Source: Candidatus Woesearchaeota archaeon
GTDB lineage: Archaea > Nanobdellota > Nanobdellia > Woesearchaeales > UBA9642
Assembly (NCBI GenBank): GCA_013330595.1
Contig: DUIB01000009.1
Coordinates: 74 to 64,073, forward strand
Length of the DNA stretch: 64,000 nucleotides
Direction: 5' to 3'
Position 1 is the first letter of the stretch. Each line of letters starts with the position of its first letter. The notes beneath the pieces were generated by a model. That model ran no database searches. It was not told the DNA's origin and saw only the letters and a list, made by a program, of their open reading frames with translations. The translations under genes were made by a program, and so were the position numbers. Below, in pieces: positions 1 to 25,232 of the stretch.

Positions 1-13
1 AAATGAAATAATA

Positions 14-814
14 GTGGATGTTGGAAAAAGCAAGTCACAAGTATATAGGGCTGTCAGTTCACTGAAAAAGAAAGATGCAATAGGGGAAGGGAAAACGTTA
101 TTGCCTAAACACTCACACATATTATTATTAGTTAATATATTAAAGAAAAATTCTCGATTGGTGAATATCTTAAATGATTCGGCTATCGATTTCCTCGTAT
201 GCCTGGATAAGCCTAGAGCTGTTTCTGAAGTCTCGGGGCTTATTGGTGTAAAAAATATCACCTTATACAAAATAATAGAAAAATTGAGAAGATTCAACAT
301 ATTAAGAAAAGAGAATTCAAAATATTCGATAAACCCTTTGTTTAATGAATTTGTAGAACTTACTGAGAGTATGCATACATATAGCATGAATGTCGATGAA
401 AGAATCCCGCTCGGTTCAAGAATATATCTGAAGAATCAAAAAGAGATATTATTCTCCAATAAATCAATTTTAGATGCGTCAATTACAGCATTTTCTAGAT
501 ATAATGATTTTGGGATAACAGTGATTACTAAGGATACTTATTATTATATGCCAAAAAAAGTTTTAGGCATAAAAGAAATTTTCATTCATTCATTATATGT
601 TGCAGAGAAAGAAAAAAGCTCAATCATTTTAGTGGCACTATTCTATTTAAGGAATAAACGGAAATTATCCGGAATAAGGCATTTTGTTCTTGATAGCCTA
701 AGAAAAATATTTAATGGAGAAAGAATTCCTGATTATCCTGTACTTGAAGAACTATTGATGAAGGCGAGGGAATATGATATCAACATTCGAGACATTAAAG
801 AAACTTTTCAATGA
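14..814 (+). CDS. hypothetical protein with predicted winged-helix region; may be 5'-truncated by the window edge
   Basis: The ORF starts at the window edge. It overlaps the next ORF by 41 nt, which suggests an operon with the nucleotidyltransferase-like gene. Confidence 0.3.
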   Translation: MDVGKSKSQVYRAVSSLKKKDAIGEGKTLLPKHSHILLLVNILKKNSRLVNILNDSAIDFLVCLDKPRAVSEVSGLIGVKNITLYKIIEKLRRFNILRKENSKYSINPLFNEFVELTESMHTYSMNVDERIPLGSRIYLKNQKEILFSNKSILDASITAFSRYNDFGITVITKDTYYYMPKKVLGIKEIFIHSLYVAEKEKSSIILVALFYLRNKRKLSGIRHFVLDSLRKIFNGERIPDYPVLEELLMKAREYDINIRDIKETFQ

Positions 815-1406
815 GATAGATGCTGTTCTTGATAAGAAAATAAAAATATATATTTTGGGTGGAGCAGCGATGATGTATCGTAATCTAAAGGATTCCACTA
901 AAGATATTGATGTAGTTATGGGTTCTGATGCTGACGTATTTGAAAAAGCGCTATTGAAGATTGGTTTTAGAAAGAAAAAGATCGGTCTGGAATATCAGAA
1001 GATGAACATTAGTTATATACTTGAGAGGGCGGATTTTAGGATTGATCTGTTTGAACATGCTGTCTGTTCAAAATTATTCTTATCTAAGAATATGATTCGG
1101 AGAAGTGAAAATACACTCGAATTACCGAAATTGTCAGTAAACATTTTAGCAAATGAGGATATATTCTTGTTCAAGACCATAACAGAAAGAGAAGGCGATA
1201 TGGTAGATTGTTCATCATTAGCGAAGGGTGGTATTGATTGGAAATATCTGCTCAAAGAGATAAGGTTTCAATGTGCCCATGGACAGGATATATGGATAAC
1301 ATGGATTGCTGAAAGAATAGATTTATTGGAAGAGAAAGGCGTGGACATTCCTATAATCAATCAACTCCATAAACTAGTTGAAGAATACTACAAGAAAAGA
1401 TTCTGA
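774..1406 (+). CDS. nucleotidyltransferase-like protein (minimal NTase fold, GG...DIDVV motif)
   Basis: The motif 'YILGGAAMMYRNLKDSTKDIDVV' resembles a Pol-beta-type NTase G[SG]..DxD. It overlaps the upstream ORF. Confidence 0.35.
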   Translation: MISTFETLKKLFNEIDAVLDKKIKIYILGGAAMMYRNLKDSTKDIDVVMGSDADVFEKALLKIGFRKKKIGLEYQKMNISYILERADFRIDLFEHAVCSKLFLSKNMIRRSENTLELPKLSVNILANEDIFLFKTITEREGDMVDCSSLAKGGIDWKYLLKEIRFQCAHGQDIWITWIAERIDLLEEKGVDIPIINQLHKLVEEYYKKRF

Positions 1407-1465
1407 GATAACTGTTGTCACTATCAGATGATTAAGAACCGTAAACTTTTTAAATTGGTTGTTCT

Positions 1466-3160
1466 TTGTTGTGTTTTATGGTTAAATTGTTGGAGAAGAT
1501 TGTTGATAAAGTTAGTAGGGCTGGAATATATTTGTTTGCTGCGTTGCAATTAGCTTTGCCTATGAAGTCTTTTGCCGAGGATGTTTCTTTGTCTGGCAGG
1601 GTTGTTAATTCTCAAGGTGTTGGACAAGCTAATAAGAATGTTGTTTTGTTTTTGAATAATAATGATAAGAAGCTTAGTGGTGTTACTGGTGTTGATGGTG
1701 TTTATGTTATCCCTTTTACTCCTTCTGGTATTAGGCACGAATATTTTTTGCCTGAAGGATATTCTGTTTCTAATAATTATCCTAATCCTTTTAATCCTTC
1801 TACTAATGTTAATATTACTCTTCCTGAACGTTCTAGGGTTGAGATGAAGGTTTATGATATGTTGGCTCAGGAGCTTGGTGTTATTGTTGATGAGGAATTG
1901 TCTGCGGGTGTGCATTATTTTCGTTTGGATTTAGAGCATTTGATTAATGGCAGAGATATTGCTGAGGGTGTGTATTTTGTTAGGACTGTGATTGATGAGC
2001 AGTATGTTAAGGTGAATAAATTATTATTTTTAAGAAATAGTCAGCATGCTAGAGCATTCAGTGAAGTTTCTAGTAATGGTTCTTCTAGTAATTCTTTTGG
2101 TAAAACATCAATAGAGGATATTGTTGATTCTTTGCAGGTGTCTGGCCGTTCTATTCTTCCAAGATCTAAAACTCTTGGAACTGTTATTTCTGGTAATACT
2201 GATTTGGGTGATGTGGTTGTTGATTCTGCTTTTAACGTCGATGGTCGATTGATTTCTACTATTAGGTATGATCAGCCTAATAATCATCTGCCTAATCTTA
2301 CGGTGATTATTGATGGATATAGTGCATTGACTGATTCTCTTGGCATGTTTTCTGTTCAGGTTCCTGTTGATAGTCATGTTGTTGAGCCATGGTTTAACCC
2401 TTGGGATCGTAAGATGGATATTGTTGATCCAAGTATTTGGACTAGAAAAAAACTTATCTACATAAGAGGTGACACAACCGATGTTATTGAAGACGTATTA
2501 ACACGAGATGAATTCCCGGATAGTGTGATGAATTTCTTGAATAAAATATCAGATAGGCAATATAATGGTTTGTATAATGTTATTATTCGTTTTGTTGATA
2601 AGCCGATTTTTTATATTGTTGCTGATACAAGTATTGCTTGGGATAAAGAATTTTATAATATTTGGAGTAATTTTATTAAGGGAGTAATGAATAATGTTAC
2701 TAAGAGCAGAAAGTATCCTAATGGTTTTTTGGAAAATGTTATTGTTAAGACTGGTCTTAATCCTCCTGCTGATTGGACTCCTGGTTATTATGTTATTGAT
2801 ACTAGCTGGACTTATGGTAATGCTGTTTTGGCAACAAGTATATTTACTGTTCATCCTGATGGTCAGCCTTATATTCCTGTTTATGCTAGGACTATTGTTG
2901 GTATGTATCCTACTCCTATGGAATTTTGGTATATGAAAAAAGCTTTGGGTCATGAGATAGGTTCTGGCCTGGTGTATATGCCTACCAGGTCTAATGATTT
3001 GATGAGTTGGTATAATCTTGGTAATCCTAATTATCCTGATATTACCAATCCTACTAAGACTGATACTTTGATGCTTCGTTATATTTTTTCTAGAGATATC
3101 GGTGTTGATTATCCTGATCTTGATTGGGATAGAAAGCGTTATGAGTTATATTATCCTTAG
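1466..3160 (+). CDS. secreted multi-domain protein, paralog 1 of a tandem triplet (CarboxypepD_reg-like 'SGRVVNSQG' domain plus a T9SS/FlgD-like beta-sandwich 'YPNPFNPSTNV' motif)
   Basis: It has a hydrophobic N-terminal leader ending ...SFA. The 'DVSLSGRVV' motif, 'NNYPNPFNPSTNVNITLPERSRVEMKVYDMLAQEL...GVYFVRTV' and a second 'DSAFNVDGRLISTIRYDQ' block are shared with the next two genes. Confidence 0.6.
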   Translation: MLCFMVKLLEKIVDKVSRAGIYLFAALQLALPMKSFAEDVSLSGRVVNSQGVGQANKNVVLFLNNNDKKLSGVTGVDGVYVIPFTPSGIRHEYFLPEGYSVSNNYPNPFNPSTNVNITLPERSRVEMKVYDMLAQELGVIVDEELSAGVHYFRLDLEHLINGRDIAEGVYFVRTVIDEQYVKVNKLLFLRNSQHARAFSEVSSNGSSSNSFGKTSIEDIVDSLQVSGRSILPRSKTLGTVISGNTDLGDVVVDSAFNVDGRLISTIRYDQPNNHLPNLTVIIDGYSALTDSLGMFSVQVPVDSHVVEPWFNPWDRKMDIVDPSIWTRKKLIYIRGDTTDVIEDVLTRDEFPDSVMNFLNKISDRQYNGLYNVIIRFVDKPIFYIVADTSIAWDKEFYNIWSNFIKGVMNNVTKSRKYPNGFLENVIVKTGLNPPADWTPGYYVIDTSWTYGNAVLATSIFTVHPDGQPYIPVYARTIVGMYPTPMEFWYMKKALGHEIGSGLVYMPTRSNDLMSWYNLGNPNYPDITNPTKTDTLMLRYIFSRDIGVDYPDLDWDRKRYELYYP

Positions 3161-3175
3161 TGTTACCCTTTTTTA

Positions 3176-4888
3176 ATGGTTAAATTTTTAAATTGTTTTG
3201 TTTTTGTGTTTTTTATGGGTAAGTTTAATGCTGTTGTTTATTCGTTGAAGAAGTTTGCTGTTGGCGTTTATGCTACGTTGCAATTAGCTTTGCCTATAAA
3301 GTCTTTTGCTGGTGATGTTTCTTTGTCTGGCAGGGTTGTTAATGATCAGGGTGTTGGGCAGGCTAATAAGAATGTTGTTTTGTTTTTGAATAATAATGAG
3401 AAGAAACTTAATGGCGTGACTGGTGCTGATGGTGTTTATGTTATTCCTTTTACTCCTTCTGGTGTTAGGCATGAGCATTTTTTGCCTGAAGGATATTCTG
3501 TTTCTAATAATTATCCTAATCCTTTTAATCCCGCTACTAATGTTAATGTTACTGTTCCTAAAAGATCTAGTGTGCAGATGAAGGTTTATAGTTTATTAGG
3601 TGAGGAGTTGGGTATTGTTATTGATAAGGATTTTGATGCTGGTGTTCATGGTGTGAATGTTGATTTGGAGCATTTTAATGTTGCTCAGGGTGTATATTTT
3701 GCTCGTACAGTGATTGATGAGCAGTATGTTAAGGTGAGTAAATTATTATTTTTAAGAAATAGTCAGCATGCTAGAGCATTTAGTAATGATATTGTTTCTA
3801 GTGGTGCTTCTGGTTCTTTTGGTAAAACATCAATAGAGGATATAATTGATTCAATGTATGTTAATGGTCGTTCAATCCTACCAACATCTAAGTTTCTCGG
3901 CGTGATTATTTCTGGTAATACTGATCTCGGTAGTATTGTTGTTGATTCTGCTTTTAACGTCGATGGTCGATTGATTTCTACTATTAGGTATGATCAGCCT
4001 AATAATCATCTGCCTAATCTTACGGTGATTATTGATGGATATAGTGCATTGACTGATTCTCTTGGCATGTTTTCTGTTCAGGTGCCTGTTGATAGCCATG
4101 CTGTTGCTCCGTTTTATGGTATGAGTCCTTGGCATCGTAAGATGGACATTGTTGATCCAAGCATCTGGACAAGAAAGAAACATCTATATGTCCGTGGAGA
4201 CACCACTGATGTAATTGAGGATGTATTGACAAAAGAAGATTTTCCTGATAGTGTGATGAACTTTATGAATTATATATCTAATAGAAATGGAACAGGGGGA
4301 TATGATGTTCTTAAGAGATTTATTGATAAGCCTTCTTTTTATGTTGTTGCTGATACAAGTATTGCTTGGGATAAGGAGTTTTATGATATTTGGGGTGGTT
4401 TTATTAAGGGTAAGTTGAATGATGTTTTGACAGGCAGATTATTCCCTGAAGGTTTCTTAAAAGATGTTATTATAAATTCAGGCACTAATCCTCCTATTCA
4501 ATGTGATGAAAATAATGCTGTTTATACTATTACTCCTGATGCTGCGTATGGTAATGCTGTTTTGGCGACTAGTCCTTGTGCTCGAGGCCCCCCCCCGATG
4601 ATTATATCGTGTATTACTAAGGTTGGAATGTATCCCACTCCTATGGATTTTGATTATATGAAGAGAGCTTTGGGTCATGAGTTGGCTTCTGGCTTGGTGT
4701 ATATGCCTAATAGGTCTAATGCTTTAATGAGTTGGTATAATCTTGGTAATCCGTTGAATCCTGATCCAACTAATCCTACTCAGACTGATTTGCTTATCTT
4801 GCGTTATGTGTTTTCAAGACCTACAGGAATGGATTTTCCTGATGTTGATTGGGAGCGTTCTCCTAAGAATCCTATCAGTGTCCCATAG
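3176..4888 (+). CDS. secreted multi-domain protein, paralog 2 of the tandem triplet
   Basis: It has the same domain order as 1466-3160. A block of about 170 bp (3952-4100) is nearly identical to 2229-2377. The true start is probably the internal Met 'MGKFNAV'. Confidence 0.6.
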   Translation: MVKFLNCFVFVFFMGKFNAVVYSLKKFAVGVYATLQLALPIKSFAGDVSLSGRVVNDQGVGQANKNVVLFLNNNEKKLNGVTGADGVYVIPFTPSGVRHEHFLPEGYSVSNNYPNPFNPATNVNVTVPKRSSVQMKVYSLLGEELGIVIDKDFDAGVHGVNVDLEHFNVAQGVYFARTVIDEQYVKVSKLLFLRNSQHARAFSNDIVSSGASGSFGKTSIEDIIDSMYVNGRSILPTSKFLGVIISGNTDLGSIVVDSAFNVDGRLISTIRYDQPNNHLPNLTVIIDGYSALTDSLGMFSVQVPVDSHAVAPFYGMSPWHRKMDIVDPSIWTRKKHLYVRGDTTDVIEDVLTKEDFPDSVMNFMNYISNRNGTGGYDVLKRFIDKPSFYVVADTSIAWDKEFYDIWGGFIKGKLNDVLTGRLFPEGFLKDVIINSGTNPPIQCDENNAVYTITPDAAYGNAVLATSPCARGPPPMIISCITKVGMYPTPMDFDYMKRALGHELASGLVYMPNRSNALMSWYNLGNPLNPDPTNPTQTDLLILRYVFSRPTGMDFPDVDWERSPKNPISVP

Positions 4889-4929
4889 TTTCTTTTATTA
4901 CTTTGTAATGGTTAAATTTTTAAATTGTT

Positions 4930-6606
4930 TTGTTTTTGTGTTTTTTTATGGGTAATTTGTTAGATGATTTTGTTTATTCGTTGAAGAAGGTTGCTGTTGT
5001 TGCGTATACGGCGTCGCAGTTGGCTTTTCCTGTTTTTGCTGGTGATGTTTCTTTATCTGGCAGGGTTGTTAATTCTCATGGTGTTGGTTTGTCTAATAAG
5101 AATGTTGTTTTGTTTTTGAATAATAATGAGAAAAAGTTGAATGGCGTGACTAATGCTGATGGTGTTTATGTTATCCCTTTTACTCCTTCTGACGTTAGGC
5201 ACGAATATTTTTTGCCTGAAGGATATTCTGTTTCTAATAATTATCCTAATCCTTTTAATCCTGCTACTAATGTTAATATTACTCTTCCTGAACGTTCTAG
5301 GGTTGAGATGAAGGTTTATGATATGTTGGCTCAAGAACTTGGCACTGTTGTTGATGGAGAGTATGATGCAGGTGTTCATGGTGTGAATGTTGATTTAGAA
5401 GATTTGGTTTCTAGTCCTTCTCAGGGTGTGTATATTTTAAAGACTGTTATTAATGATGCGTATGCTAATGCTAAGAAGATATTGTTTTTAAGAGATTCTC
5501 AACATGCTGGTAGTTTTAATTTTGGTGGTGTTTCTTCTAATAATTATTTTTCTAAGGTTTCTTTGCAGGATGTTGTTGATTCTATGCATGTTAATGGTAG
5601 GTCTATCCTGCCAACTTCAAAATCTCTTGGTGTGATTATTTCTGGTGATACTGATCTCGGTGATGTGGTTGTTGATTCAGCATTCAATGTTGATGGAAAG
5701 GTCATTTCTACTATTAGGTATGATCAGCCTAATAATCATCTGCCTAATCTTACGGTGATTATTGATGGTTATTCTGCTGTTAGTGATTCTCTTGGTAATT
5801 TCTCTGTTCAGGTGCCTGTTGATAGTGTTGTTCCTCCTCCTTTTTCTGGATTGTCTCCTTGGCATCGTAAGATGGATATTGTTGATGAGAGCATCTGGAC
5901 TAGAAAGAAACACATCTATATCGATGGTGATACATCTAATGTCATTGAAGATGTCTTGACAAAAGCAGACTTTCCAGATAGTGTAATGAACTTTTTGAAT
6001 GAATTATCGTGGAGAGATAAGGGAGGATTGTATGATGTGATTATGCGTTTTGTTGATAAGCCGATTTTTTATATTGTTGCTGATACTACTCAGGATTTTG
6101 GTAAGAATTTTTATAATCTTTTATCAACGTTTGTCAGAGGAACATTGAATGACCTTACAAAAAGTAAAAAATATCCTCTCGGGTTTTTAGAGAATGTTGT
6201 TATTGAGACCGGTGTTAATCCTCCTGCAGATGATACTCCTAGTTATTATGTTATTAAGACAAGTATGGATTATGGAAATGCTTCTGCACTTACTGGTTCA
6301 TTTTCTATTCATCCTGATGGTCAGCCTTATACGCCTGTTTATGCTAAAACCACTTTTGGTGTTTACCCTGAGCCTAGGTTGGATATTATTAAGAAGTTAT
6401 TGGCTCACGAGATTTTGTCTGGTTTGGTGTTTATGCCTACTAGGTCTAATGATTTGTTTAGTGTGTATAATACTGGTCCTTCTGGTAAGATTTTCGATAC
6501 TGATAGGTTGATGTGGAAGTATATTTTTTCTCGAGATAATGGTGTGGATTATCCTGATCTTGATTGGAGCAGGTCTCCGAAGAATCCGTGGATTGATAAT
6601 CCATGA
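4930..6606 (+). CDS. secreted multi-domain protein, paralog 3 of the tandem triplet
   Basis: It has the same architecture. An identical 60-bp tract (5703-5765) is shared with paralogs 1 and 2. Confidence 0.6.
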   Translation: MFLCFFMGNLLDDFVYSLKKVAVVAYTASQLAFPVFAGDVSLSGRVVNSHGVGLSNKNVVLFLNNNEKKLNGVTNADGVYVIPFTPSDVRHEYFLPEGYSVSNNYPNPFNPATNVNITLPERSRVEMKVYDMLAQELGTVVDGEYDAGVHGVNVDLEDLVSSPSQGVYILKTVINDAYANAKKILFLRDSQHAGSFNFGGVSSNNYFSKVSLQDVVDSMHVNGRSILPTSKSLGVIISGDTDLGDVVVDSAFNVDGKVISTIRYDQPNNHLPNLTVIIDGYSAVSDSLGNFSVQVPVDSVVPPPFSGLSPWHRKMDIVDESIWTRKKHIYIDGDTSNVIEDVLTKADFPDSVMNFLNELSWRDKGGLYDVIMRFVDKPIFYIVADTTQDFGKNFYNLLSTFVRGTLNDLTKSKKYPLGFLENVVIETGVNPPADDTPSYYVIKTSMDYGNASALTGSFSIHPDGQPYTPVYAKTTFGVYPEPRLDIIKKLLAHEILSGLVFMPTRSNDLFSVYNTGPSGKIFDTDRLMWKYIFSRDNGVDYPDLDWSRSPKNPWIDNP

Positions 6607-6714
6607 TTATATAATTCAAGTTTTTTTCTTAATAATAAATATTTTTATTAAGATTTTTGTTATCTTATCATCAATTGTGCATTATCGAGGAGAAATACTT
6701 TTGGGATAACATTA

Positions 6715-8064
6715 GTGTTCTTTATAACGAAAGCTTTATATATTAATTGTATTTCCTATAATACAAAATTAGTACTTTTTGTTCAGTTGGAGATACAAAT
6801 GGATTACAAAGCGATTATTGTCCAATGGATGGAGTTTAAGATTCCTGAAGTTATGCATAGGGATATAAATATTGTTTTGGATAAGGGTTTTATAATAACA
6901 ATCACTGGCCCAAGGAGATCCGGAAAAACGTATATGTGCTTTCAATTAATGCATTCACTGTCAAGGAAAAATCTGTTATATCTAAATTTTGAGGACAATA
7001 AACTGTTAAATGCTGGCGCAGATGATCTTGATAAATTGCTGGAATCATTTTATGAACTTTCTGATGTCAATAAGGATTCCAGGATATGCCTATTTCTAGA
7101 TGAGATACAGAATGTTAGGGATTGGGATGCATGGACGCGGAAGATGCATGATTATAATAAAAACATCCAACTGATAATTACTGGATCCAGCTCTAAGATG
7201 CTGAGTAGGGAGTTATCCACAAAACTTAGAGGACGCACTCTTGAGCATGAAATATTCCCATTGAGTTTTAAGGAGTTTCTTGAATGGAGAAATATTTCCT
7301 ATAATATGAAGACATTAAGCTATAGTAGAGATAAGATAGGCGTAAAGAAAGCTTTCAGTGAATATATGAAAAATGGCGGTTATCCAGCACTTATAAGTTT
7401 CGATGATAGAAAGACTGTTTTGCAATCATACTATGATACAATGATACTTAAGGATGTTGTTGAGAGGCATAATGTCTCTGATGTAAATAAATTAAGGCTA
7501 GTTGCCAATCTTCTTATTGAGTCTGCATCCAGAGAGATATCCTATAATAAGTTGGCCAATAAGCTGAAATCTATTGGCGTAAGCATGAGCAAGAATACAA
7601 TAATAGAATATATCTCCTACATGGAAGAATGCTATCTTGTTTTCCAGAACCTAAAATATGAATATTCCTTAACCAAACAGCTAGGGGCAATAAAGAAACT
7701 GTATGTTATAGATACAGGATTGCTTAATGCAATAAGCTTCAAGTATTCAGAGGATAATGGTAAATTATTGGAGAATATTATTTACATACAATTGAGAAGG
7801 CAAAGCAGGGAAATTTATTATCATTCTGGAAAGAATGAATGTGATTTCATAATTAAAGATGGCAACAGGATTATTTCTGCAATTCAGGCATGCTATGAAT
7901 TGAATGATGATAATAGGGATAGAGAGGTCAAGGGATTGCTTGAAGCTATGAGTGAGCATAAATTGAGAGAGGGATTGATAATTACACTGGATCAAGATGA
8001 TGAGTTTATTATTGATAAGAAAAAGATTAGGGTGGTTCCTGCTTGGAAGTGGCTGTTAGGCTGA
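6715..8064 (+). CDS. AAA+ ATPase with C-terminal DUF4143-like domain (COG1373 family); likely true start at Met ~6796 (MDYKAIIV)
   Basis: Walker A is 'ITGPRRSGKTY'. There are 'LFLDEIQ' and 'ITGSSS' sensor motifs and a C-terminal 'WKWLLG'. It is a paralog of 13644-14909. Confidence 0.65.
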   Translation: MFFITKALYINCISYNTKLVLFVQLEIQMDYKAIIVQWMEFKIPEVMHRDINIVLDKGFIITITGPRRSGKTYMCFQLMHSLSRKNLLYLNFEDNKLLNAGADDLDKLLESFYELSDVNKDSRICLFLDEIQNVRDWDAWTRKMHDYNKNIQLIITGSSSKMLSRELSTKLRGRTLEHEIFPLSFKEFLEWRNISYNMKTLSYSRDKIGVKKAFSEYMKNGGYPALISFDDRKTVLQSYYDTMILKDVVERHNVSDVNKLRLVANLLIESASREISYNKLANKLKSIGVSMSKNTIIEYISYMEECYLVFQNLKYEYSLTKQLGAIKKLYVIDTGLLNAISFKYSEDNGKLLENIIYIQLRRQSREIYYHSGKNECDFIIKDGNRIISAIQACYELNDDNRDREVKGLLEAMSEHKLREGLIITLDQDDEFIIDKKKIRVVPAWKWLLG

Positions 8065-8219
8065 TTTTTGTTATTGTAAACTTTGTCATTTAATCATTCC
8101 TTGTAATAGTTTTTCATTAATAATCCTGCATTGATTTTTCCATAAATAATGAATAACAACTATCGTAGATGCAAAAAAACAACAACCTTTAAAAAACTGA
8201 TTTCTTACCTAAGTCCTGT

Positions 8220-9263
8220 ATGAAGAACACATTCAAGAATCTATTAACAATATTCTTCCTATTGATAGGAATAGCGGCAATGTATGTGATCTTGAAAAAT
8301 CATAGCCTTAAAGATATCTTCCAGATGTACAGTAATTTCAATGCATACATTCTGATATTATATATCATTGCTGTCGTTTCGATAATGGTTGTATTGACAT
8401 GGCGTTGGGATCTGATATTAAGATCAAGGAACATTAAGGTTCCATTCAAGAAATTATTAATATATAGGATAATCGGGACTAGCATCAATTTCCTTACTCC
8501 GGGGCCTAGAGTCGGTGGTGAGCCGACACAGGCATCATTGCTTACAAAACATAAAGTTGACTTTACAGAAGGATTAAGCACAATAATGATTGATAAGATC
8601 ATTGACACAACAACCTCTGGATTATTATTCATTATTGGAGTTGTCCTTGTTGGTTTGAAATACACTTTTCCGAGAAACACAGAGCTCGCATTGACTTTAG
8701 GAGGAGTGGTTTTTCTGGCAATTGTGACTTTGTTTTATTATAGGATGCTTACAAGCCAGCATTTCTTCCTGAAAATATTTCATTTTTTCAGATTAGACAA
8801 AATAAAGAATAAGTTCTGGAAAAAGCTAGAAAAAAGTATTGAAAAAATAGAATTGACAATGATTGATTTCTATAAGATGAACAAAAAGGCATTTGTCGTC
8901 TCATTACTAATCAGCATATTCACCTGGGTATTGATGTTTTTCGAATATAAATTTGCAACAATGCTTTTAGGATTGGATATTGGAGCTGTTGAGATATTCT
9001 TTATTGTTACATTCATCGGATTGGCAATATTATTCCCTATTCCCATGGCTGTTGGTGTGCTAGAGGCAGGACAAGTGTCTGCATTTGCATTGATAAGATT
9101 AAATGCATCAGCAGGAGTTGCATTAGCATTCTTAGTAAGGATGAAAGATATCATCTGGGCTTTAATAGGCCTTGTTTTGCTTGCAACTTACGGATTCCAT
9201 GTAGGAAAGGTTGTAAGGAAAAAATATGGGGATAAGAATCTTGACATAGGAGAAAATGGCTAG
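8220..9263 (+). CDS. integral membrane protein, lysylphosphatidylglycerol-synthase-TM-like (UPF0104) flippase-like protein
   Basis: It is a multi-TM protein. The 'GTSINFLTPGPRVGGEP' motif is typical of the UPF0104/LPG_synthase_TM family. It is in an operon with the glycosyltransferase (8-nt overlap). Confidence 0.45.
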   Translation: MKNTFKNLLTIFFLLIGIAAMYVILKNHSLKDIFQMYSNFNAYILILYIIAVVSIMVVLTWRWDLILRSRNIKVPFKKLLIYRIIGTSINFLTPGPRVGGEPTQASLLTKHKVDFTEGLSTIMIDKIIDTTTSGLLFIIGVVLVGLKYTFPRNTELALTLGGVVFLAIVTLFYYRMLTSQHFFLKIFHFFRLDKIKNKFWKKLEKSIEKIELTMIDFYKMNKKAFVVSLLISIFTWVLMFFEYKFATMLLGLDIGAVEIFFIVTFIGLAILFPIPMAVGVLEAGQVSAFALIRLNASAGVALAFLVRMKDIIWALIGLVLLATYGFHVGKVVRKKYGDKNLDIGENG

Positions 9264-10314
9264 GATAATATATTCCATATGCGGAGAAGGCTTAGGGCAT
9301 GCATTCAGGAGTGCAGAGATAATATCTGAACTGAGAAAAAAGCATGATGTTCTCATTATTGCAGCAAGCTCGAGGATAGCTGATTATCTGAAAAAAAGAT
9401 TCAATAAAATTGAAACCTTTGAAGGATTAAGGCTTTCATATAAAGACAATAGCATTGATGATTACACAACATTAAGAAATTATATGAAATGGCTTCTTGA
9501 AAGCCCTAAAACAATAAGAAAATTATTCAAGATATTCAGAAAGTACAAGCCAGACTTATTGATAACAGACTTTGAGGGTGCAACAGCAGCAATAGCAAAC
9601 ATATCGAATATTCCTGTTGTATGCATATGCAATATCCATGCAATGACCAAGCTAAGATATAAATTACCTAAAAAATACAGATTGACAGGGGCAAAGATAA
9701 AGATTGTTGTAAACACAATATTCCCGAAAGCAGATTATCATTTGATAATAAGTTTTTTCAAAGAAAAGCCAAAAAATCATAATATATCATTATACGCTCC
9801 TGTAATAAGGAAAGAATTCCACGGTGTCAAGACAAAAAAAGCAAATTACATAGTGGTATATCAGACATCAGACACTCACTCAAGGCTTATACATTATTTG
9901 AAAAAAATAAATTATAATTTCATTGTTTATGGATTCAACAAGGAGAGTAAAGAAAATAATATTATATTCAGGAAATTCAGCTATGATCAGATGATAAAAG
10001 ACCTTGCAGAATGCAATGCATGTATTGCCAATGGCGGTTTTACTTTCATTACAGAAGCAATATATCTCCATAAACCTGTATTGTGTGTCCCGATAAAAGG
10101 ACAGTTTGAGCAGATACTGAATTCAATATATGTTAAGAAGCTAGGTTATGGAGAGATGTACGATCATATTGACAAAAAAAAGATAGAAAATTTTATCTCA
10201 AACTTAAAAAAATATGAGAAAAAGCTTCAACATGTCAAGAAAGAAAACAATTCAAAGTTGATGCATAAGGTCGAGGAAATAATAAAAAATGTCTCTAATA
10301 AAGGAAGGACTTAG
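9256..10314 (+). CDS. glycosyltransferase, GT28/MJ1255-like family
   Basis: The N-terminus is 'CGEGLGHAFRS'. The C-terminus has 'ANGGFTFITEAIYLHKPVLCVP', a UDP-sugar-binding motif of MurG/MGT-like glycosyltransferases. Confidence 0.6.
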   Translation: MARIIYSICGEGLGHAFRSAEIISELRKKHDVLIIAASSRIADYLKKRFNKIETFEGLRLSYKDNSIDDYTTLRNYMKWLLESPKTIRKLFKIFRKYKPDLLITDFEGATAAIANISNIPVVCICNIHAMTKLRYKLPKKYRLTGAKIKIVVNTIFPKADYHLIISFFKEKPKNHNISLYAPVIRKEFHGVKTKKANYIVVYQTSDTHSRLIHYLKKINYNFIVYGFNKESKENNIIFRKFSYDQMIKDLAECNACIANGGFTFITEAIYLHKPVLCVPIKGQFEQILNSIYVKKLGYGEMYDHIDKKKIENFISNLKKYEKKLQHVKKENNSKLMHKVEEIIKNVSNKGRT

Positions 10315-11389
10315 GATATTTTCAAGAAGCATTAAGATAAGCTTTTCTGGATTTGCTAAATATTCTGGTAATGATGAACAGATATGCAATAATATAGTCA
10401 GTAAATGCTATAATAAGGAAAAACAATTCTTTCAAGCAAGCCTGGGCAATTATCCTGAATTTTATTCAAGAGATTTCGGAATGTGCACTGCATCATTGAT
10501 TAAACTAGGATATAGAGATAAAATCATAAAAACATTGGAGTATGCATTAAGTCATTATTCAAGGAATCAAATAACTGTATTGATAACTCCTGAAGACAAA
10601 CCAATAAATTTTCCTAGCATCTACAGTCCGGACAGTGTTGCATATCTATTCAGGAGCTTAAGAATTGCAAAAGCAGAAAATCTTGTGATTAAATATAAGA
10701 ATTTTCTTAATTCCGAGATAAAAAGATTTGAGGAGATAATAGAAAACGGAATCATAAAGTATGAGCATTATTCTGGAATGAGAGATCATGCAATAGTGAA
10801 ATCATCTTGCTATGACATGATAATGGCATGCATGCTATGCGATGAAATTGAAAAGATAAACAAACTCGTGAATAAGAAAGTTCTTGATAACAGATTAAAG
10901 AAGTATGATCTTAAGAAGAATCTTATCAAGCATTACTGGAATGGAAGATATTTCAAGAATTCAATCAATGATGATTCGTTTGTTGCTCATAATAATGTGT
11001 TTCCGTATTGGCTTGATGTTATTAATGATAAGAAAATGCTTTCATCGTCGATGAATGAGATTCAGAGGAATGATCTTGACAAGCCTTTTCCTGCAAAGTA
11101 TGTTGCAGAGAGGACAAGCAAGGGATTTGTATGGCAGAATATTTTCGTAAGGAATTGGGAGACAGACAAGATTTGGACATTTTTAGGAATCCCATATATT
11201 GATGTATTATTGAAAATTAATAAGAAAACAGCCAAGATGCATATCGAACAATACAAGAAACTCATCGAGAAGAACGGATTTGTAGAAGTCTATGATAAGA
11301 ATGGCCTTCCGTATAAGACATTGTTTTTTGCTGCAGATACAGATATGTTGTGGGCTTGTATGTATTTGGAAATAAAAAAGAAAAAATAA
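10289..11389 (+). CDS. hypothetical protein, possibly an (alpha/alpha)6 glycoside hydrolase-like protein
   Basis: It overlaps the glycosyltransferase by 26 nt, so it is in the same operon. There is only weak motif resemblance. Confidence 0.3.
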   Translation: MSLIKEGLRIFSRSIKISFSGFAKYSGNDEQICNNIVSKCYNKEKQFFQASLGNYPEFYSRDFGMCTASLIKLGYRDKIIKTLEYALSHYSRNQITVLITPEDKPINFPSIYSPDSVAYLFRSLRIAKAENLVIKYKNFLNSEIKRFEEIIENGIIKYEHYSGMRDHAIVKSSCYDMIMACMLCDEIEKINKLVNKKVLDNRLKKYDLKKNLIKHYWNGRYFKNSINDDSFVAHNNVFPYWLDVINDKKMLSSSMNEIQRNDLDKPFPAKYVAERTSKGFVWQNIFVRNWETDKIWTFLGIPYIDVLLKINKKTAKMHIEQYKKLIEKNGFVEVYDKNGLPYKTLFFAADTDMLWACMYLEIKKKK

Positions 11390-11392
11390 AAA

Positions 11393-11710
11393 TTATTTCT
11401 TGCCTACCTTCTCTTCTTTCATAATCATCTTAGCAATCAAGAACACAACAAATGCAATGATTATGAAGTTCAATAATTCTCCTGCAAATGCGCCGATCTT
11501 CATCACAATTGGGCCGAGATGTATTGCAGATTCTTTCCATGCACCACCCGGGATGAATGGCGTGATTATTGGCATTACGATATTATCAACTAGAGATTTC
11601 ACCAATGCAGTGATCGCAACACCCATGATGAAAGCAACAGCCAATGTCAATACCTTGTATCCCTTTAAAAATTCCTTAAATTCTTTAATTAATTTTGCCA
11701 TCTTTGCCAC
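11393..11710 (-). CDS. mscL: large-conductance mechanosensitive channel MscL
   Basis: The N-terminus has 'KEFKEF', followed by two TM helices and a charged C-terminal tail. The length of 105 aa is typical of MscL. Confidence 0.75.
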   Translation of the reverse strand: MAKMAKLIKEFKEFLKGYKVLTLAVAFIMGVAITALVKSLVDNIVMPIITPFIPGGAWKESAIHLGPIVMKIGAFAGELLNFIIIAFVVFLIAKMIMKEEKVGKK

Positions 11711-11711
11711 C

Positions 11712-11963
11712 TTATTCTGTCCACTTTACGTTTTTGTAATTATATTTGGTTGCTATTAGAATAAGATCTACTAACCACCATATTCCCAAACCACCAAAGG
11801 TTATTAACTTGAGAATTCCTGTACCCACTTTTCCCATCATGAATCTATCAACACCAATCCATCCAAAGATTATAGACATTACCAAACATAAGACCCAATT
11901 AACTTCTCTACCTGAACCTACTGTCTTCTTAGATTTCTTCTTTGCCATAATATCAACCCCCAC
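11712..11963 (-). CDS. TM2 domain-containing membrane protein
   Basis: It has the 'GWIGVDRFMMGKVGTGILKL' motif (GxxGxDRFYxG of the TM2 domain) and two TM helices. Confidence 0.55.
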   Translation of the reverse strand: MGVDIMAKKKSKKTVGSGREVNWVLCLVMSIIFGWIGVDRFMMGKVGTGILKLITFGGLGIWWLVDLILIATKYNYKNVKWTE

Positions 11964-12225
11964 TATACATATGTATACTCAAACGGCTTTTTAAAGGTAG
12001 TGGAAAAAAAGAAAAAATAATATATAAAAAATATTATAAAAATTTTTATTAAAAATTTCGACAGAAATTTTCAGGGTTTAATACAAAGAAATGTAGTACA
12101 TTTCTTGTACACAAAATTTATCAAAATTTTGTTGTACCCCGACCTTTAGGTCGAAATTTTTAGTTCAAAAAATCCTTCGGATTTTTATGTAGCTCCGAAC
12201 AGCGAATTTTTGTTATTTCCAGTCT

Positions 12226-12300
12226 TTGATCACAGCCTGCGCCGCCGCCAACCTAGCTATAGGAACCCTGTATGGTGAGCATGAAACATAGTTTGTATGT
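12226..12300 (-). other. displaced duplicate of the ppdK 3' end (last ~22 codons, synonymously diverged), an att-like remnant
   Basis: The reverse complement translates to YVSCSPYRVPIARLAAAQAVIK, versus the ppdK C-terminus YVSCSPYRVPIARLAAAQAVLK. Nucleotide identity is about 75%. Confidence 0.7.
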
Positions 12301-12313
12301 CTTAATTAGTCTT

Positions 12314-12328
12314 GTTGGTACTACCAAC
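12314..12328. promoter_or_regulatory. perfect 15-nt palindrome GTTGGTACTACCAAC upstream of the HEPN/MNT pair (candidate operator)
   Basis: It is read directly from the sequence and lies about 40 nt upstream of the 12369 start. Confidence 0.3.
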
Positions 12329-12368
12329 CGAAAGATTTAAATAATCCTTTTATGTTTCTATTACCAAC

Positions 12369-12707
12369 ATGGTTGAAAATGACTTAATCAGGAATGCTAG
12401 AATCATAATGAGTTCTGCTGATATGGTGTATTATAAGAAAGATTATACCTCGGCAACAATACTCTACTTCAAGGCAGCATTCCTTATACTTGATTATATA
12501 TTATTGCAGAGCAAAGGCCAAACACCAAAGGATCATACAGAAAGGTTCAGGATGCTTGAATTATCAGATAAAAATCTATATGTGTTTTTAGATAAGAATT
12601 TCAAGATATATAGGCAAACTTACACAACCACGACAGATAAATTCACATGCGATAAAGTGAGGGAAAATGTCAGGAAGATTATTAAAGAATACAAAATTCA
12701 AATCTGA
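12369..12707 (+). CDS. HEPN domain protein (putative toxin of a HEPN/MNT pair)
   Basis: It is a small protein that overlaps the downstream minimal nucleotidyltransferase by 41 nt. Confidence 0.45.
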   Translation: MVENDLIRNARIIMSSADMVYYKKDYTSATILYFKAAFLILDYILLQSKGQTPKDHTERFRMLELSDKNLYVFLDKNFKIYRQTYTTTTDKFTCDKVRENVRKIIKEYKIQI

Positions 12708-13266
12708 AATAAAGAAGTTCTTCATTAAGCATAAACAGTCCATATTAGATATAATAATATTTGGCTCAAGCGTGAGAGAGAAAGATAATCCTGAAGATAT
12801 AGATATACTAATAATATTCATTGACAGGAAAGATTATGATATAAGCTATGAACTGAGAAAGATATTGGAGAAACAGGGATTCAGTATAGAGATTACTGAC
12901 AAGACATATCAAGAGATATTCAAGCAGGATTTCAAGGCAAGAGAAGCATTATTATCAGAAGGATATAGCATAATTAATGAAACATTCTTATCATCAGGAC
13001 TCGGATATAATACTTTTGTATTATTCAAATATGACCTTGGAGATATGAATAAGTCCCAAAGAATGAGATTCTATTACAGCCTATACGGAAGGACAAAGGA
13101 AGATGAAGGAATATTGGAGAAGTACAATGCAAAGAAATTCTCTGAATCAATAATCCTATGTCCTATTAATAATAGTGAATCACTAAAGAATTTCTTCGAA
13201 GAATGGAAGATGAAATACGTATCATTCCCAATAATCATCCCTGAAAGGATAAAGAATGTGATGTAA
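12667..13266 (+). CDS. minimal nucleotidyltransferase (MNT), cognate of the HEPN protein
   Basis: The 'IIFGSSVREKDNPEDIDILI' motif matches the GSx(9-13)DxD motif of the Pol-beta NTase superfamily. Confidence 0.65.
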   Translation: MSGRLLKNTKFKSEIKKFFIKHKQSILDIIIFGSSVREKDNPEDIDILIIFIDRKDYDISYELRKILEKQGFSIEITDKTYQEIFKQDFKAREALLSEGYSIINETFLSSGLGYNTFVLFKYDLGDMNKSQRMRFYYSLYGRTKEDEGILEKYNAKKFSESIILCPINNSESLKNFFEEWKMKYVSFPIIIPERIKNVM

Positions 13267-13295
13267 AAGCTAATGCTACTTTGCTTTTCGTTATA

Positions 13296-13511
13296 TTATA
13301 TGAAATTATAATAATTAATCCCATATTCCTGCGATATTATTACTGATTCATATCCTCTTATGATATCGAATTTATTCTTCAAGTCTCTCATTATAGTGTG
13401 GAATTGAGTGAAGTTATCTACTATGAACTCAAACTCTATATCCCAACTCCCGACGCATTTAATTATAGTATATATCTCTGGCAGTTGCTCTACATATTTT
13501 AGACTATACAT
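13296..13511 (-). CDS. small hypothetical protein
   Basis: This is an ORF only. Confidence 0.2.
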   Translation of the reverse strand: MYSLKYVEQLPEIYTIIKCVGSWDIEFEFIVDNFTQFHTIMRDLKNKFDIIRGYESVIISQEYGINYYNFI

Positions 13512-13603
13512 GCCAGAAGTGTATTATAAATAAAGACACTTTAAGTCAAAAGTGTATAGAAATTAGAGACACCTTTAATATAGATAAGTTTATCTAAGAT
13601 CAT

Positions 13604-13640
13604 TCCTTTGATCACAGCCTGAACAGCAGCCAACTGCAAG
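13604..13640 (-). other. second, more degenerate remnant of the ppdK 3' end (att-like)
   Basis: It shares 'tttgatcacagcctg' with 12225-12239. The reverse complement encodes ...LAAVQAVIK. It lies immediately after the stop of the ATPase gene. Confidence 0.45.
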
Positions 13641-13643
13641 TCT

Positions 13644-14909
13644 TCATTTCTCCAGTAGCCATTTCCAGACAGGCAGAACTTTTATCCTTGTTTTTCCTTG
13701 AATTATTTCTTTTTCAGTGTCGTAAGTTAGGATAATGGTTTTTTTTAATTTCCATCTCTTCTTTGCTTCTCTGATTCCATTTGTCTCTCTATTAATATTT
13801 TCAGAATTCAATTCTAAACAGACTTGAATGGCTAATTTGTCCTTATTTATTACGAAATCGCACTCATTCTTATCTTGTGAATACATAACATCCTTTCCCT
13901 GTCTTTTTAGCTCTAAAAAAACAACATTTTCAAGCAGTTGCGCTTTTATTTGTTGTACGTCAAAAGTCATCAATGTGACAATCCCTGTATCCACAGAATA
14001 AGCTTTTTTTTCTGAAATTGATTGCTTTAGAACTGACTTATCTAATTTTTGAACAAAGAAGAGAATATAACAATCCTCGAGATAATTCATATATTCATAT
14101 AATGAGTCTTTGCTTATCTTAATGCCTTGTGACTTAAGTTCAGTATATTGCTTATTCACTGAGAATTTCTTCCCTATGTTATTCAATAATTTTTTTATAA
14201 TTAGCCTGATAGCGACAGTATTTGTTATTTTATATCTAGAGATTATATCCCTGTATATCATGACTTCTATATATGATTGCAATGTTTTCCTTCTAACTTC
14301 ATCCCTCATATCAATAGTCTCTGGAAATCCTCCGTTAACAAGATAGTTCCCAAATTCTTTTCTAAGCAAAGCTTTTTTCTTTAATGAATATAGATCAATA
14401 GTGTCAACATTCTTGAATTTTAGGTACTCCTTAAATGAGAATGGGTACACCTCGTAATTGATGGCTCTTCCTCTGATGCTTGTGGCAATCTCTTTGCTTA
14501 ATAATTTGGATGAAGAGCCAGTGATGAATATGTTTCGCGTAATAGTGTCGTAGGATCTTCTTATGAATTGTTCCCAATTCTCAACATTCTGTATCTCGTC
14601 AAAGAATAGATACTGCAATTTTCCCTCTGGATAAAGTTCATAGTATGCATCATATATCTCCTGGAGATTTTCCTTCTTTAAATCAAGTCTCTCATCCTCG
14701 AAATTTATGTAGATGATATTTTCTTTAGGGATCTTCTCTCTTAGTGTCTTTATCAGTTGATACATAAGATAGGTCTTTCCTGATCTTCTTACACCACTTA
14801 TTGTTATTATTTTTCTGCTATCTAATGGAACATCTATTGCTCTGAAAGTTATTTCAGGAAGCGCATTGCTGTGGAATTCCTTGATTATTACCTTTATTGC
14901 ATCCTTCAT
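13644..14909 (-). CDS. AAA+ ATPase with DUF4143-like C-terminal domain (COG1373 family)
   Basis: Walker A is 'ISGVRRSGKTY'. There are 'LFFDEIQ' and 'ITGSSS' motifs and a C-terminal 'WKWLLEK'. It is a paralog of 6715-8064. Confidence 0.65.
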   Translation of the reverse strand: MKDAIKVIIKEFHSNALPEITFRAIDVPLDSRKIITISGVRRSGKTYLMYQLIKTLREKIPKENIIYINFEDERLDLKKENLQEIYDAYYELYPEGKLQYLFFDEIQNVENWEQFIRRSYDTITRNIFITGSSSKLLSKEIATSIRGRAINYEVYPFSFKEYLKFKNVDTIDLYSLKKKALLRKEFGNYLVNGGFPETIDMRDEVRRKTLQSYIEVMIYRDIISRYKITNTVAIRLIIKKLLNNIGKKFSVNKQYTELKSQGIKISKDSLYEYMNYLEDCYILFFVQKLDKSVLKQSISEKKAYSVDTGIVTLMTFDVQQIKAQLLENVVFLELKRQGKDVMYSQDKNECDFVINKDKLAIQVCLELNSENINRETNGIREAKKRWKLKKTIILTYDTEKEIIQGKTRIKVLPVWKWLLEK

Positions 14910-14940
14910 ACTGTAAGAATATCGCCTTTATTTATAAAGG

Positions 14941-14960
14941 TTTCCTTCTAAGAAGGAAAG
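14941..14960 (-). terminator. hairpin TTTCCTTCT-AA-AGAAGGAAA downstream of ppdK
   Basis: It has a perfect 9-bp inverted repeat about 35 nt past the ppdK stop. It is flanked by a T-rich tract on the minus strand. Confidence 0.35.
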
Positions 14961-14993
14961 AAATACTATAAAATCTCCTTGTCAGAAGGAAAG

Positions 14994-23910: not shown

Positions 23911-24004
23911 CTATTCCAACGAGGCGATTATTGTTGTTGTCTAGATTGTTCCTAGCATTAGCATTTGAATTATTGTTGAGCCTGGAAACAAACCACAAGT
24001 GCCC
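23911..24004 (-). repeat. DGR template repeat (TR), sense on the minus strand
   Basis: This 94-nt copy is near-identical to 24403-24496. Thirteen of 14 differences are at TR adenines (AAY codons; the in-frame TR translation is ...LNNNSNANARNNLDNNNNRLV...). It is not part of a full-length gene. Confidence 0.75.
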
Positions 24005-24259
24005 CCAGAGTAGCTCTTTCACTGAAAGTATGCACTGCCACTTCATTTCTAACAGAAATCCACAGATTTCTGGAAGATCCCAAAAATGTTTCATTTTTGA
24101 TATCTGTCGTAGCTGTATTTTATAACAACATCCGCATGTTATCGTAGTGAAAGGGCATGTAGTCCAGCTACTCCATATCGCACGATTTTTCGGAAATCAT
24201 GCAAAGTGCTGGGATAATAAGAACGTTAAAGAAGAAATATAAAAAGTTAATGAAAAAAA

Positions 24260-25045: not shown

Positions 25046-25232
25046 TTTAATTACCTCCTCTTAGGATATATTTTATAAGATATATTAGAACTTATTTATA
25101 AAGGTTTCGATTATTTTGCCACTCGATAGTGGTATCCATATATGATTAAATTGTTGGTGAAACATTTTAAAGCATGACGAAACTTCAAACAGCCATAAAA
25201 TTCAGTTAAAAACTATAAAAACAAGGATTACA

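Follow-up and report, generated by a model that had tools for sequence, protein, structure and literature searches.

Gene-conversion systems, such as Neisseria pilE/pilS, Borrelia vlsE, Treponema tprK and Anaplasma msp2, and tandem paralogs that evolve in concert are characterized by cassettes bounded by conserved tracts: the copies are mosaics of limited block types, and near-identical strains differ by cassette replacement only. In strand-asymmetric genomes (vertebrate mitochondrial DNA (mtDNA), with its L-strand genes as opposed to ND6, single-stranded DNA (ssDNA) phages and rolling-circle replicons), an extreme keto/amino skew is seen at the third codon positions, genes on opposite strands are mirror images, and the first positions, the second positions and the amino acids drift in parallel. 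Features of both kinds were found together in three tandem genes, g1, g2 and g3, within 64,000 nucleotides of a Candidatus Woesearchaeota archaeon (GenBank assembly GCA_013330595.1, contig DUIB01000009.1, positions 74 to 64,073 of the forward strand); this whole stretch is hereafter referred to as the window, and its first letter is position 1. We consider it probable, though well short of certain, that the three genes are a tandem array of a mobile exported-protein family that undergoes segmental recombination and carries a strand-asymmetric mutational footprint. The locus is a recombining multigene family of exported proteins, which is a known kind, and this particular protein family is uncharacterised. 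The main point of interest is a skew about as extreme as that of animal mitochondria, which flips its sign within one mobile protein family, together with mosaic exported proteins in a DPANN archaeon. The array consists of the following genes.

1466 to 3160, + strand: g1, paralog 1, 564 aa counted from TTG 1466.
3176 to 4888, + strand: g2, paralog 2, 570 aa; protein P0001 is 100% identical to its product.
4930 to 6606, + strand: g3, paralog 3, 558 aa.

The three open reading frames (ORFs) are intact, and the spacers between g1 and g2 and between g2 and g3 are 15 and 41 nt long. The pairwise identities are 67–69% for the proteins and 70–75% for the DNA. The start of g1 is likely ATG 1478 (MVKLLEK...) rather than TTG 1466, as judged from the sequence; protein P0004 (560 aa) equals the g1 product counted from this ATG. 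The host is a Woesearchaeota (DPANN) archaeon and the array sits in its chromosome, because the same or sister proteins (P0004, P0006 and P0009) bear the NCBI name "Candidatus Woesearchaeota archaeon" and the window carries the archaeal housekeeping genes for GatE, GatD, deoxyhypusine synthase, CDC48 and pyruvate phosphate dikinase (PPDK). The array is reproduced in two independent assemblies: contig L090 (JGI assembly) corresponds to window 1–6201 at 99.9% and extends a further 6.2 kb upstream, and contig L001 (ENA assembly) corresponds to window 2307–16000 at 98.3%. A preliminary description of the array, made from the sequence alone, had recognized the three tandem paralogs and their shared architecture, and the ORFs lie exactly where it had placed them.

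Recombination among the copies is recorded in the distribution of identity along the genes. The longest exact run, 146 bp, is shared by g1 and g2 (2216–2361 = 3938–4083), and its core of 65 bp is common to all three genes (2252–2316 = 3974–4038 = 5704–5768). Another tract, of 139 bp with one mismatch (exact runs of 70 and 68 bp), is shared by g1 and g3 (1731–1869 = 5195–5333). The near-identical tracts reported in the preliminary description therefore exist, with coordinates that were 13–16 nt off and with the g1/g3 tract missed. The flanks are, as it had claimed, less alike than the tracts, and their identity ranges over 38–85% in 60-nt windows instead of the 70–80% given there. Permutation of the polymorphic sites in the manner of GENECONV gave p = 0.0001, 0.0002 and 0.0008 for the three pairs, and across the 588 polymorphic sites the identity of the odd one out falls into long blocks. 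When only synonymous codons were permuted, p was 0.0003 for g1/g2, 0.0002 for g1/g3 and 0.045 for g2/g3; because the signal persists for g1/g2 and g1/g3, the tracts are not accounted for by purifying selection. Divergence is far from uniform: the number of synonymous substitutions per site (dS) between g1 and g2 varies from 0.07 to 1.46 among blocks. The ratio of nonsynonymous to synonymous divergence (dN/dS) is 0.5–0.76 in the variable parts versus 0.14–0.3 in the conserved blocks, which would fit an interaction surface under relaxed or diversifying pressure.

The variability is block-wise, and the closest paralog switches from block to block. Three parts vary: the signal peptide, aa ~112–250 and aa ~385–564. 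The earlier description of the C-terminal ~250 aa as variable is only roughly correct. Comparison with other strains brings out two blocks in particular.

1798 to 2215 in g1, 3532 to 3937 in g2 and 5334 to 5703 in g3, + strand: the g1-type variable cassette and its homologous counterparts in g2 and g3, covering the second half of the C-terminal domain (CTD)-like sandwich described below and the linker.
6300 to 6711, + strand: the 3′ block of g3 with the downstream spacer, replaced in strain L091.

Between the window and L001, 235 of the 238 differences fall within 3532–3937 and 5334–5703, and the other 3 are all that is found over the rest of the 13.7 kb (2307–16000). In the sister strain L001, g1-type sequence has taken the place of both the g2 and the g3 cassette: the two are 100% alike, and both are 99.3% identical to the g1 cassette of the window (1798–2215). 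All 7 differences between the window and L090 lie in 1894–2054. Strain L091 has no difference from the window in 3957–6299, then 104 differences in 6300–6711, and then a different downstream module. A table of 90-nt block types for 11 copies in six assemblies showed that each copy is a different mix of a few types. Taken together, ongoing gene conversion or segmental homologous recombination, among g1–g3 and with further copies, is strongly supported, and it is more extensive than the conversion proposed in the preliminary description. In the product, the variable parts probably comprise the latter half of the CTD-like sandwich, the linker and some of the C-terminal head. Two features set the locus apart from the cassette systems mentioned above. 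One is that all copies examined, g1–g3 included, are full-length ORFs, each with a start and a putative signal peptide of its own, and no split into an expression site and silent cassettes is visible. Another is that the host is a DPANN archaeon, not a vertebrate pathogen.

The base composition of the array is anomalous, and its skew coincides with the mosaic structure.

1440 to 6700: keto-rich (G+T) compositional island on the + strand, coinciding with g1–g3.

The keto-rich zone sets in at ~1400–1460 and ends at ~6650–6800; local G+T is 0.55–0.71 inside versus 0.41–0.57 outside, and a positive GC skew combined with a negative AT skew occurs within the window only in this island. At the third codon positions of g1–g3, T accounts for 0.62–0.64, G for 0.19–0.20, A for 0.10–0.13 and C for 0.04–0.05, while in the 45 other ORFs the third-position fraction of T (T3) is 0.23–0.43 and that of A (A3) is 0.26–0.45. 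GTT makes up 74% of the Val codons, GGT 66% of Gly, TCT 58% of Ser and CCT 79% of Pro; the codons for K, E and Q end in G in 58–74% of cases, those for N, D, H, Y, F and C end in T in 93–96%, and 4-fold sites have T at 0.69–0.78. The anomaly is real and located at synonymous sites, and the T-rich, A-poor coding strand with dominant GTT, GGT, TCT and CCT codons, as first described, holds against the 45 other ORFs. The minus-strand ORFs of 80–134 aa inside g1–g3 (1550–1915, 2108–2377, 2549–2953, 3878–4183 and 5053–5379), whose translations are rich in I, N, R, K and S, were rejected as real genes: A is avoided at the sense third positions, so that stop codons vanish from the in-register antisense frame, and these ORFs look like by-products of that avoidance.

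The T/G-rich composition is common to all Woesearchaeal copies of the family. Beside copies in L003, L004, L007 and L091, minus-strand genes of the PIN, ribbon-helix-helix (RHH), AbiEii, HEPN and nucleotidyltransferase (NTase) types have A 0.53–0.63, C 0.19–0.28 and T 0.06–0.17 at third positions; this is the complement of the family's composition, and for the PIN gene the agreement is almost exact (complement T.63, G.19, C.07, A.11; family T.63, G.19, C.045, A.12). In the L004 island, 8 of 8 spacers are skewed in the same direction, more weakly. Elsewhere the sign is reversed: the mirror-image members P0086, on an archaeal contig, and P0087, on a bacterial contig, have third-position A of.65 and.54, C of.23 and.28, G of.04 and.09 and T of.08 and.10, respectively, and sit among neighbours of ordinary composition. 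Three further members (P0007, P0089 and P0096) are ordinary, and the codon usage of P0007 matches its own neighbours. Across 13 members, the third-position G+T extends from 0.12 to 0.84, and along this range the first-position value moves from.38 to.58, the second-position value from.36 to.48, the share of V/G/F/L/C/W from.19 to.33 and that of T/P/N/K/Q/H from.41 to.26.

These opposite-strand complements, the spacer skew, the mirror-image members and the co-variation of first positions, second positions and amino acids point to strand-asymmetric mutation pressure rather than codon selection; the same skew pattern is known from vertebrate mtDNA and from ssDNA and rolling-circle genomes. Unlike in those genomes, the skew of this family is confined to islands of a few kb in otherwise unskewed cellular chromosomes, and to our knowledge such compositional behaviour is undescribed. 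Two other causes were rejected. Transcription-coupled deamination should follow the coding strand, and the minus-strand neighbours and mirror-image homologs do not; a local replication skew was not seen in the rest of the window.

The family is rare and scattered over both prokaryotic domains. Its close relatives (52–100% identity) are the Woesearchaeal copies plus P0007 (64% identity), whose contig is bacterial because it also carries a TonB-dependent receptor and an SLT/LysM protein. In the C-terminal domain, g2 is nearer to P0007 (71%) than to g1 (63%) or g3 (48%). Distant members with the full architecture (25–31% identity) were found on three contigs of bacteria, L093 (carrying OEP/RND and a D5 primase), L094 (a TonB receptor) and L095 (SpoIIE/PPK), and on the archaeal contig L092 (a signal-peptide peptidase, a 199-aa ribosomal protein S2 and RadB). 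Contigs of bacteria (L002, L093, L094 and L095) as well as of archaea carry the family, which, to judge from these placements, has crossed the boundary between the two domains more than once. A profile search of genome contigs detected no full-length relative and matched the N-terminal module in bacteria of the Fibrobacterota–Chlorobiota–Bacteroidota (FCB) group only, the matches being dominated by the NNYPNPFN of ordinary type IX secretion system (T9SS) cargo. No relative of the C-terminal domain was found in IMG/VR, among the INPHARED phages or among the PLSDB plasmids, and a literature search found no description of the family or of the phenomenon. The usual neighbours are mobile and defence genes: AAA_14/DUF4143 (PADLOC candidate PDC-S01), PIN/RHH, AbiEii and HEPN/NTase modules, IS110 and Y1 transposases and D5 primase.

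These observations can be brought together as follows. The genes g1–g3 would belong to a rare, horizontally mobile family of exported stalk-plus-head proteins, the stalk being composed of CarboxypepD_reg-like, T9SS-CTD/FlgD-like and immunoglobulin (Ig)-like sandwiches and the head being a degenerate zincin-like alpha/beta domain. As the comparisons show, the copies diversify by gene conversion, which involves g1–g3 and additional copies located in other parts of the genome or in the population, and every copy is a combinatorial mosaic because conserved identical tracts bound the variable cassettes. The T/G-rich, A/C-poor coding strand would be the footprint of a strand-asymmetric directional mutation pressure, of the kind that prolonged single-strandedness of one strand produces in vertebrate mtDNA, in ssDNA phages and in replicons of the rolling-circle or strand-displacement type. 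This pressure may have acted either on a host replicon, former or alternating, or on the recombining islands in situ. A bolder extension, which we regard as doubtful, is that the family and the small toxin–antitoxin (TA) and defence genes travelling with it mark an undescribed strand-asymmetric process or vehicle: either ssDNA, rolling-circle or strand-displacement elements that carry genes for surface proteins back and forth between FCB bacteria and DPANN archaea, or a locus-specific mechanism that chronically leaves one strand of a recombining island single-stranded or mutates it. Either would produce a third-position skew as strong as that of animal mtDNA and might itself promote cassette exchange.

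Several other explanations were weighed against this proposal. If g1–g3 were highly expressed or specially regulated, and if T- and G-ending codons were preferred by the host, translational selection would suffice; in line with this, synonymous sites show the strongest bias and spacers a weaker one, a second large secreted Cys-rich protein nearby is also T3-rich (0.56–0.62), and archaeal NNT and NNA codons are read by different tRNAs. However, CDC48 and PPDK in the window have T3 values of only 0.34–0.35, and C-ending codons are avoided in g1–g3, not preferred. Members in other genomes have the mirror composition (A3 0.54–0.65), the first and second positions and the amino-acid content move with the third positions, and opposite-strand neighbours show the complement; these facts contradict selection for T-ending codons, and we consider this explanation unlikely. 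The preliminary description had offered foreign origin or unusual selection as the cause. A simple form of the former, namely recent horizontal transfer from a T-rich donor cell, such as an FCB-group bacterium, with amelioration still incomplete, agrees with an N-terminal module typical of Ignavibacteria, Bacteroidota and other FCB bacteria, with the members on bacterial contigs and with the location among transposase, TA and defence genes. It has to contend with bacterial homologs that are ordinary (P0007, P0089 and P0096) or skewed the opposite way (P0087): because the codon usage of P0007, the closest of them, is ordinary, the T-richness was not inherited from this visible donor. In addition, we know of no cellular genome with a third-position G+T of ~0.83, and the composition is old in the Woesearchaeal lineage because at least eight diverged copies (69–89% nucleotide identity) have it in common. 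We therefore see little prospect for simple transfer; the earlier suggestion is partly right in that the family does cross domains. Strand-asymmetric mutation pressure, which had not been considered there, takes the place of both suggestions because of the mirror-image members, the co-variation and the complementary neighbours.

Two alternatives remain. In one, the skew comes from an in-situ process tied to diversification: one strand of a recombination hot spot is repeatedly single-stranded, through resection, R-loops or a strand-specific mutator, or, in another form, a G/T-rich strand is favoured since recombinases of the RecA/RadA type prefer pairing G/T-rich DNA; in either form, a single mechanism would underlie both skew and gene conversion. 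In its favour, the skewed and the mosaic parts of the window are exactly the same, the sign of the skew does not depend on how the genes are oriented, which is expected where duplex asymmetry alone matters, a strong skew is known at conversion loci such as Borrelia vls, and GT-rich DNA is preferred by RecA. Yet there is no direct evidence of such machinery near the locus, a skewed single-copy member without a nearby paralog exists (L095), the non-recombining TA genes share the skew, and the diversity-generating retroelement (DGR) of the window does not target g1–g3, so that this explanation seems improbable to us as it stands. In the other, the mosaic is an artefact of assemblers that threaded reads of different paralogs or strains through identical tracts. 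The breakpoints indeed fall on exact repeats of 55–146 bp, which are branch points of assembly graphs, and the L001 contig begins inside a repeat and holds a 574-bp exact duplicate. For these two reasons, individual conversion events could be assembly errors. A wholly artefactual origin is unlikely, because the window and L090, from different projects, agree at 99.9% over 6.2 kb with all blocks included, and because the statistical signal, dS heterogeneity among it, resides within the single sequence of the window; the same block types also recur in different combinations in six assemblies. We accordingly give this alternative very little credence.

The favoured reading, a mobile, recombining family with a strand-asymmetric footprint, has weaknesses of its own. 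The T–A skew of the island spacers is +0.04 to +0.35 versus +0.5 to +0.97 at 4-fold sites, and a purely mutational cause does not predict weaker skew in spacers. The interleaved AAA_14/DUF4143 genes are compositionally normal, and the argument that one and the same DNA strand is skewed whatever the gene orientation is based on two or three independent gene modules only. An NTase gene on the + strand (12667–13266) is also A-rich, and A-richness may thus be partly a property of such small genes. The giant Cys-rich protein that accompanies the family fits poorly with strand asymmetry, being T-rich but with C>G. IMG/VR and the phage and plasmid collections yielded no strand-asymmetric replicon that carries the family. 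As for recombination, the 574-bp exact repeat in L001 could have been mis-threaded by a short-read assembler. As for the head, no fold match of the C-terminal domain reaches E ≤ 0.001, HExxH is absent from it, its first His is Lys in several members, and any function assigned to it is putative only.

The implications differ for the protein and for its composition. DPANN archaea are believed to live attached to other cells; the likely interface is formed by the proteins that they export. A multi-copy family that shuffles cassettes would represent a second diversification route in DPANN archaea, beside the DGR of the same window. The family also shows that an entire multi-domain exported protein has recently moved between bacteria and archaea, a sorting domain of T9SS type being put to structural use in the process. 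Almost the full range of keto skew that is possible occurs within one protein family, and its protein composition is dragged along; such codon-usage outliers should not be interpreted as signs of high expression or of a T-rich donor. Finding where the asymmetry comes from may reveal a new type of mobile replicon or a new local mutational mechanism.

The proteins share one order of parts: a signal-peptide-like segment, a CarboxypepD_reg-like domain, a T9SS-CTD-like sandwich, Ig-like beta domains and a C-terminal domain of ~230 aa. The parts before the Ig-like domains are located as follows.

1466 to 1576 in g1, 3176 to 3310 in g2 and 4930 to 5040 in g3, + strand: N-terminal hydrophobic signal-peptide-like segment, read from the sequence.
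1586 to 1729 in g1, 3320 to 3499 in g2 and 5050 to 5193 in g3, + strand: CarboxypepD_reg-like beta-sandwich (PF13620).
1772 to 2008 in g1, 3506 to 3742 in g2 and 5236 to 5481 in g3, + strand: internal T9SS type-A CTD/FlgD-Ig-like beta-sandwich, starting NNYPNPFNP.

The hydrophobic N-terminal segment is a putative signal peptide. It ends ...KSFA|EDV in g1 and ..SFA|(E/G)DV across copies, where cleavage would occur, and in the AlphaFold2 (AF2) model of g2 it is one low-confidence helix (aa 3–38). That model, built from a 30-sequence alignment, has a mean predicted local distance difference test (pLDDT) value of 77.5. It has the CarboxypepD_reg-like strands at aa 48–92 (pLDDT ~90), the CTD-like strands at aa 108–192, a disordered S/N/G-rich linker at aa 199–220, further beta domains at aa 223–350 and an alpha/beta domain at aa ~350–560. 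At the profile level, PF13620 scores 26.2, 28.8 and 32.5 bits against a cut-off of 32.3, so that g3 alone passes, the matches covering only profile positions 1–48/60 of 82; among the aligned family members, 26 of 30 match it. PF18962 stays below its cut-off of 27 in all three genes (23.1, 25.6 and 23.9 bits), with matches at E<0.01 in 30 of 30 members, one of which also matches FlgD_ig, and TIGR04183 passes for g2 only (29.6 vs 23). The Pfam check proposed at the outset thus yields one passing gene for the first profile and none for the second. A Foldseek search with the full-length model returned pilins, adhesins, complement MG domains and cellulosomal scaffoldins, that is, generic tandem-Ig matches only, which in terms of the model correspond to a stalk of Ig-like domains.

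T9SS cargo (PF18962/TIGR04183, and the FlgD Ig-like PF13860) likewise has a sandwich of ~80 aa starting NYPNPFNP that is preceded by a CarboxypepD_reg-like domain. The likeness is to this one domain only: in g1–g3 the sorting-type domain is near the N-terminus, not at the extreme C-terminus, and the host is archaeal, without an outer membrane. Its internal position, noticed from the beginning, stands; it occupies aa 103–190 of ~565 and is followed by ~375 further residues. T9SS is, as far as we know, restricted to bacteria of the FCB group, and none of its components was found among the scanned ORFs, which covered part of those in the window. The N-terminal module (aa 16–221) also heads an Ignavibacteriaceae protein with a different C-terminal domain, and because of this same N-terminal placement with a different head, the CTD-like sandwich looks like a reusable structural stalk module here, not a secretion tag.

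The C-terminal domain, the presumed head, is the following.

4193 to 4855, + strand: C-terminal alpha/beta domain of g2 with the conserved (H/K)E..SG helix; its GHELASGL motif is at 4673–4696.
From 2465 in g1 (motif 2948–2971) and from 5923 in g3 (motif 6403–6426), + strand: the corresponding domains.

It is rare, with 21 matches among 1.84 billion representative proteins. No match was found in Pfam, NCBIfam, PHROG or PADLOC, nor any sequence match to a PDB chain, and PDB sequence profiles gave nothing usable. Modelled alone (AF2), the domain has a pLDDT of 83 and a predicted template modelling (pTM) score of 0.83. Metallopeptidases of the metzincin type (ADAMTS4, TACE, the matrix metalloproteinases MMP9/10, snake-venom metalloproteinases and viral M10/MMP) lead both fold searches, against PDB and BFVD, with weak matches (E ≥ 0.03, TM score 0.3–0.45). 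In common with metzincins and other zincins (adamalysin/ADAM, MMP and M10), a mixed sheet and a long helix with a conserved H-E are predicted. Unlike them, the domain has HE[LI]xSG instead of HExxHxxGxxH, and its best fold match has an E value of about 0.03. The helix motif is GHE[LI]xSGL, no member has the second His, and E, R, S, D, R and D are invariant. From the model, the domain may be a degenerate or atypical zincin-like head, and the products may be surface or secreted binding proteins or pseudo- or atypical hydrolases.

The array is bordered by an IS110 transposase upstream, seen in L090 only, and by a candidate defence ATPase downstream. The transposase gene (DEDD_Tnp_IS110 + Transposase_20; L090 4956–5996) lies ~1.3 kb upstream of the first position of the window, which does not include it because the source contig has its start there, and just upstream of two ORFs (14–814 and 774–1406, + strand) that directly precede g1. 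These overlap and encode a weakly matching TrmB-like winged helix-turn-helix protein and a DUF6036 nucleotidyltransferase, have an ordinary composition and resemble a two-gene module of the AbiE/MNT type. ATPase genes of the AAA_14 + DUF4143 type flank the family in every archaeal locus; in the window they are at 6715–8064 (+ strand), which matches the PADLOC candidate defence system PDC-S01 with E 1e-114, and at 13644–14909 (− strand), and their composition ranges from normal to G/T-skewed (L004 194–1423). The giant Cys-rich secreted protein is found near the family in both archaeal lineages (L090 398–2878, L003 8618–13735 and L092 209–3541). It has 1705 aa and weak Disintegrin-like matches in L003, is a DUF4215 protein in L092, and is T3-rich (0.52–0.62), though its C>G sets it apart from the family. 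A 1.67-kb G/T-rich stretch (T.38, G.25) with no long ORF (L003 6299–7964 = L091 8095–9760), which separates this giant gene from a family copy, could be a decayed gene or a non-coding element. The distant member P0090 adjoins a weak match to a Y1 transposase, of the ssDNA-transposing IS200/IS605 type, and a VapB/PIN pair (L008 132–692); the Y1 neighbour may bear on how the family moves.

Finally, the window carries a complete DGR at 23911–26864, ~17 kb from the array. DGRs are protein-diversifying systems, and in this respect the array resembles them; the cassette differences in the triplet, however, are of all substitution types, not adenine-specific, and no template repeat matches the triplet, so that action of the DGR on g1–g3 was rejected. 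Its reverse transcriptase (RVT_1 + HTH_40) is encoded at 25233–26864 (+ strand). The template repeat is at 23911–24004 (− strand), and the variable repeat, at 24403–24496 (− strand), lies inside an ORF without a Pfam match (24260–25045, − strand). Between the two repeats, which form the only such pair found in the window, 13 of 14 mismatches are at template adenines. A match to the Rfam RT-16 RNA (63.4 bits; gathering score 50) occupies 24005–24212 (− strand), exactly between the target gene and the template repeat, and this position suggests that the RT-16 motif is part of the template transcript.

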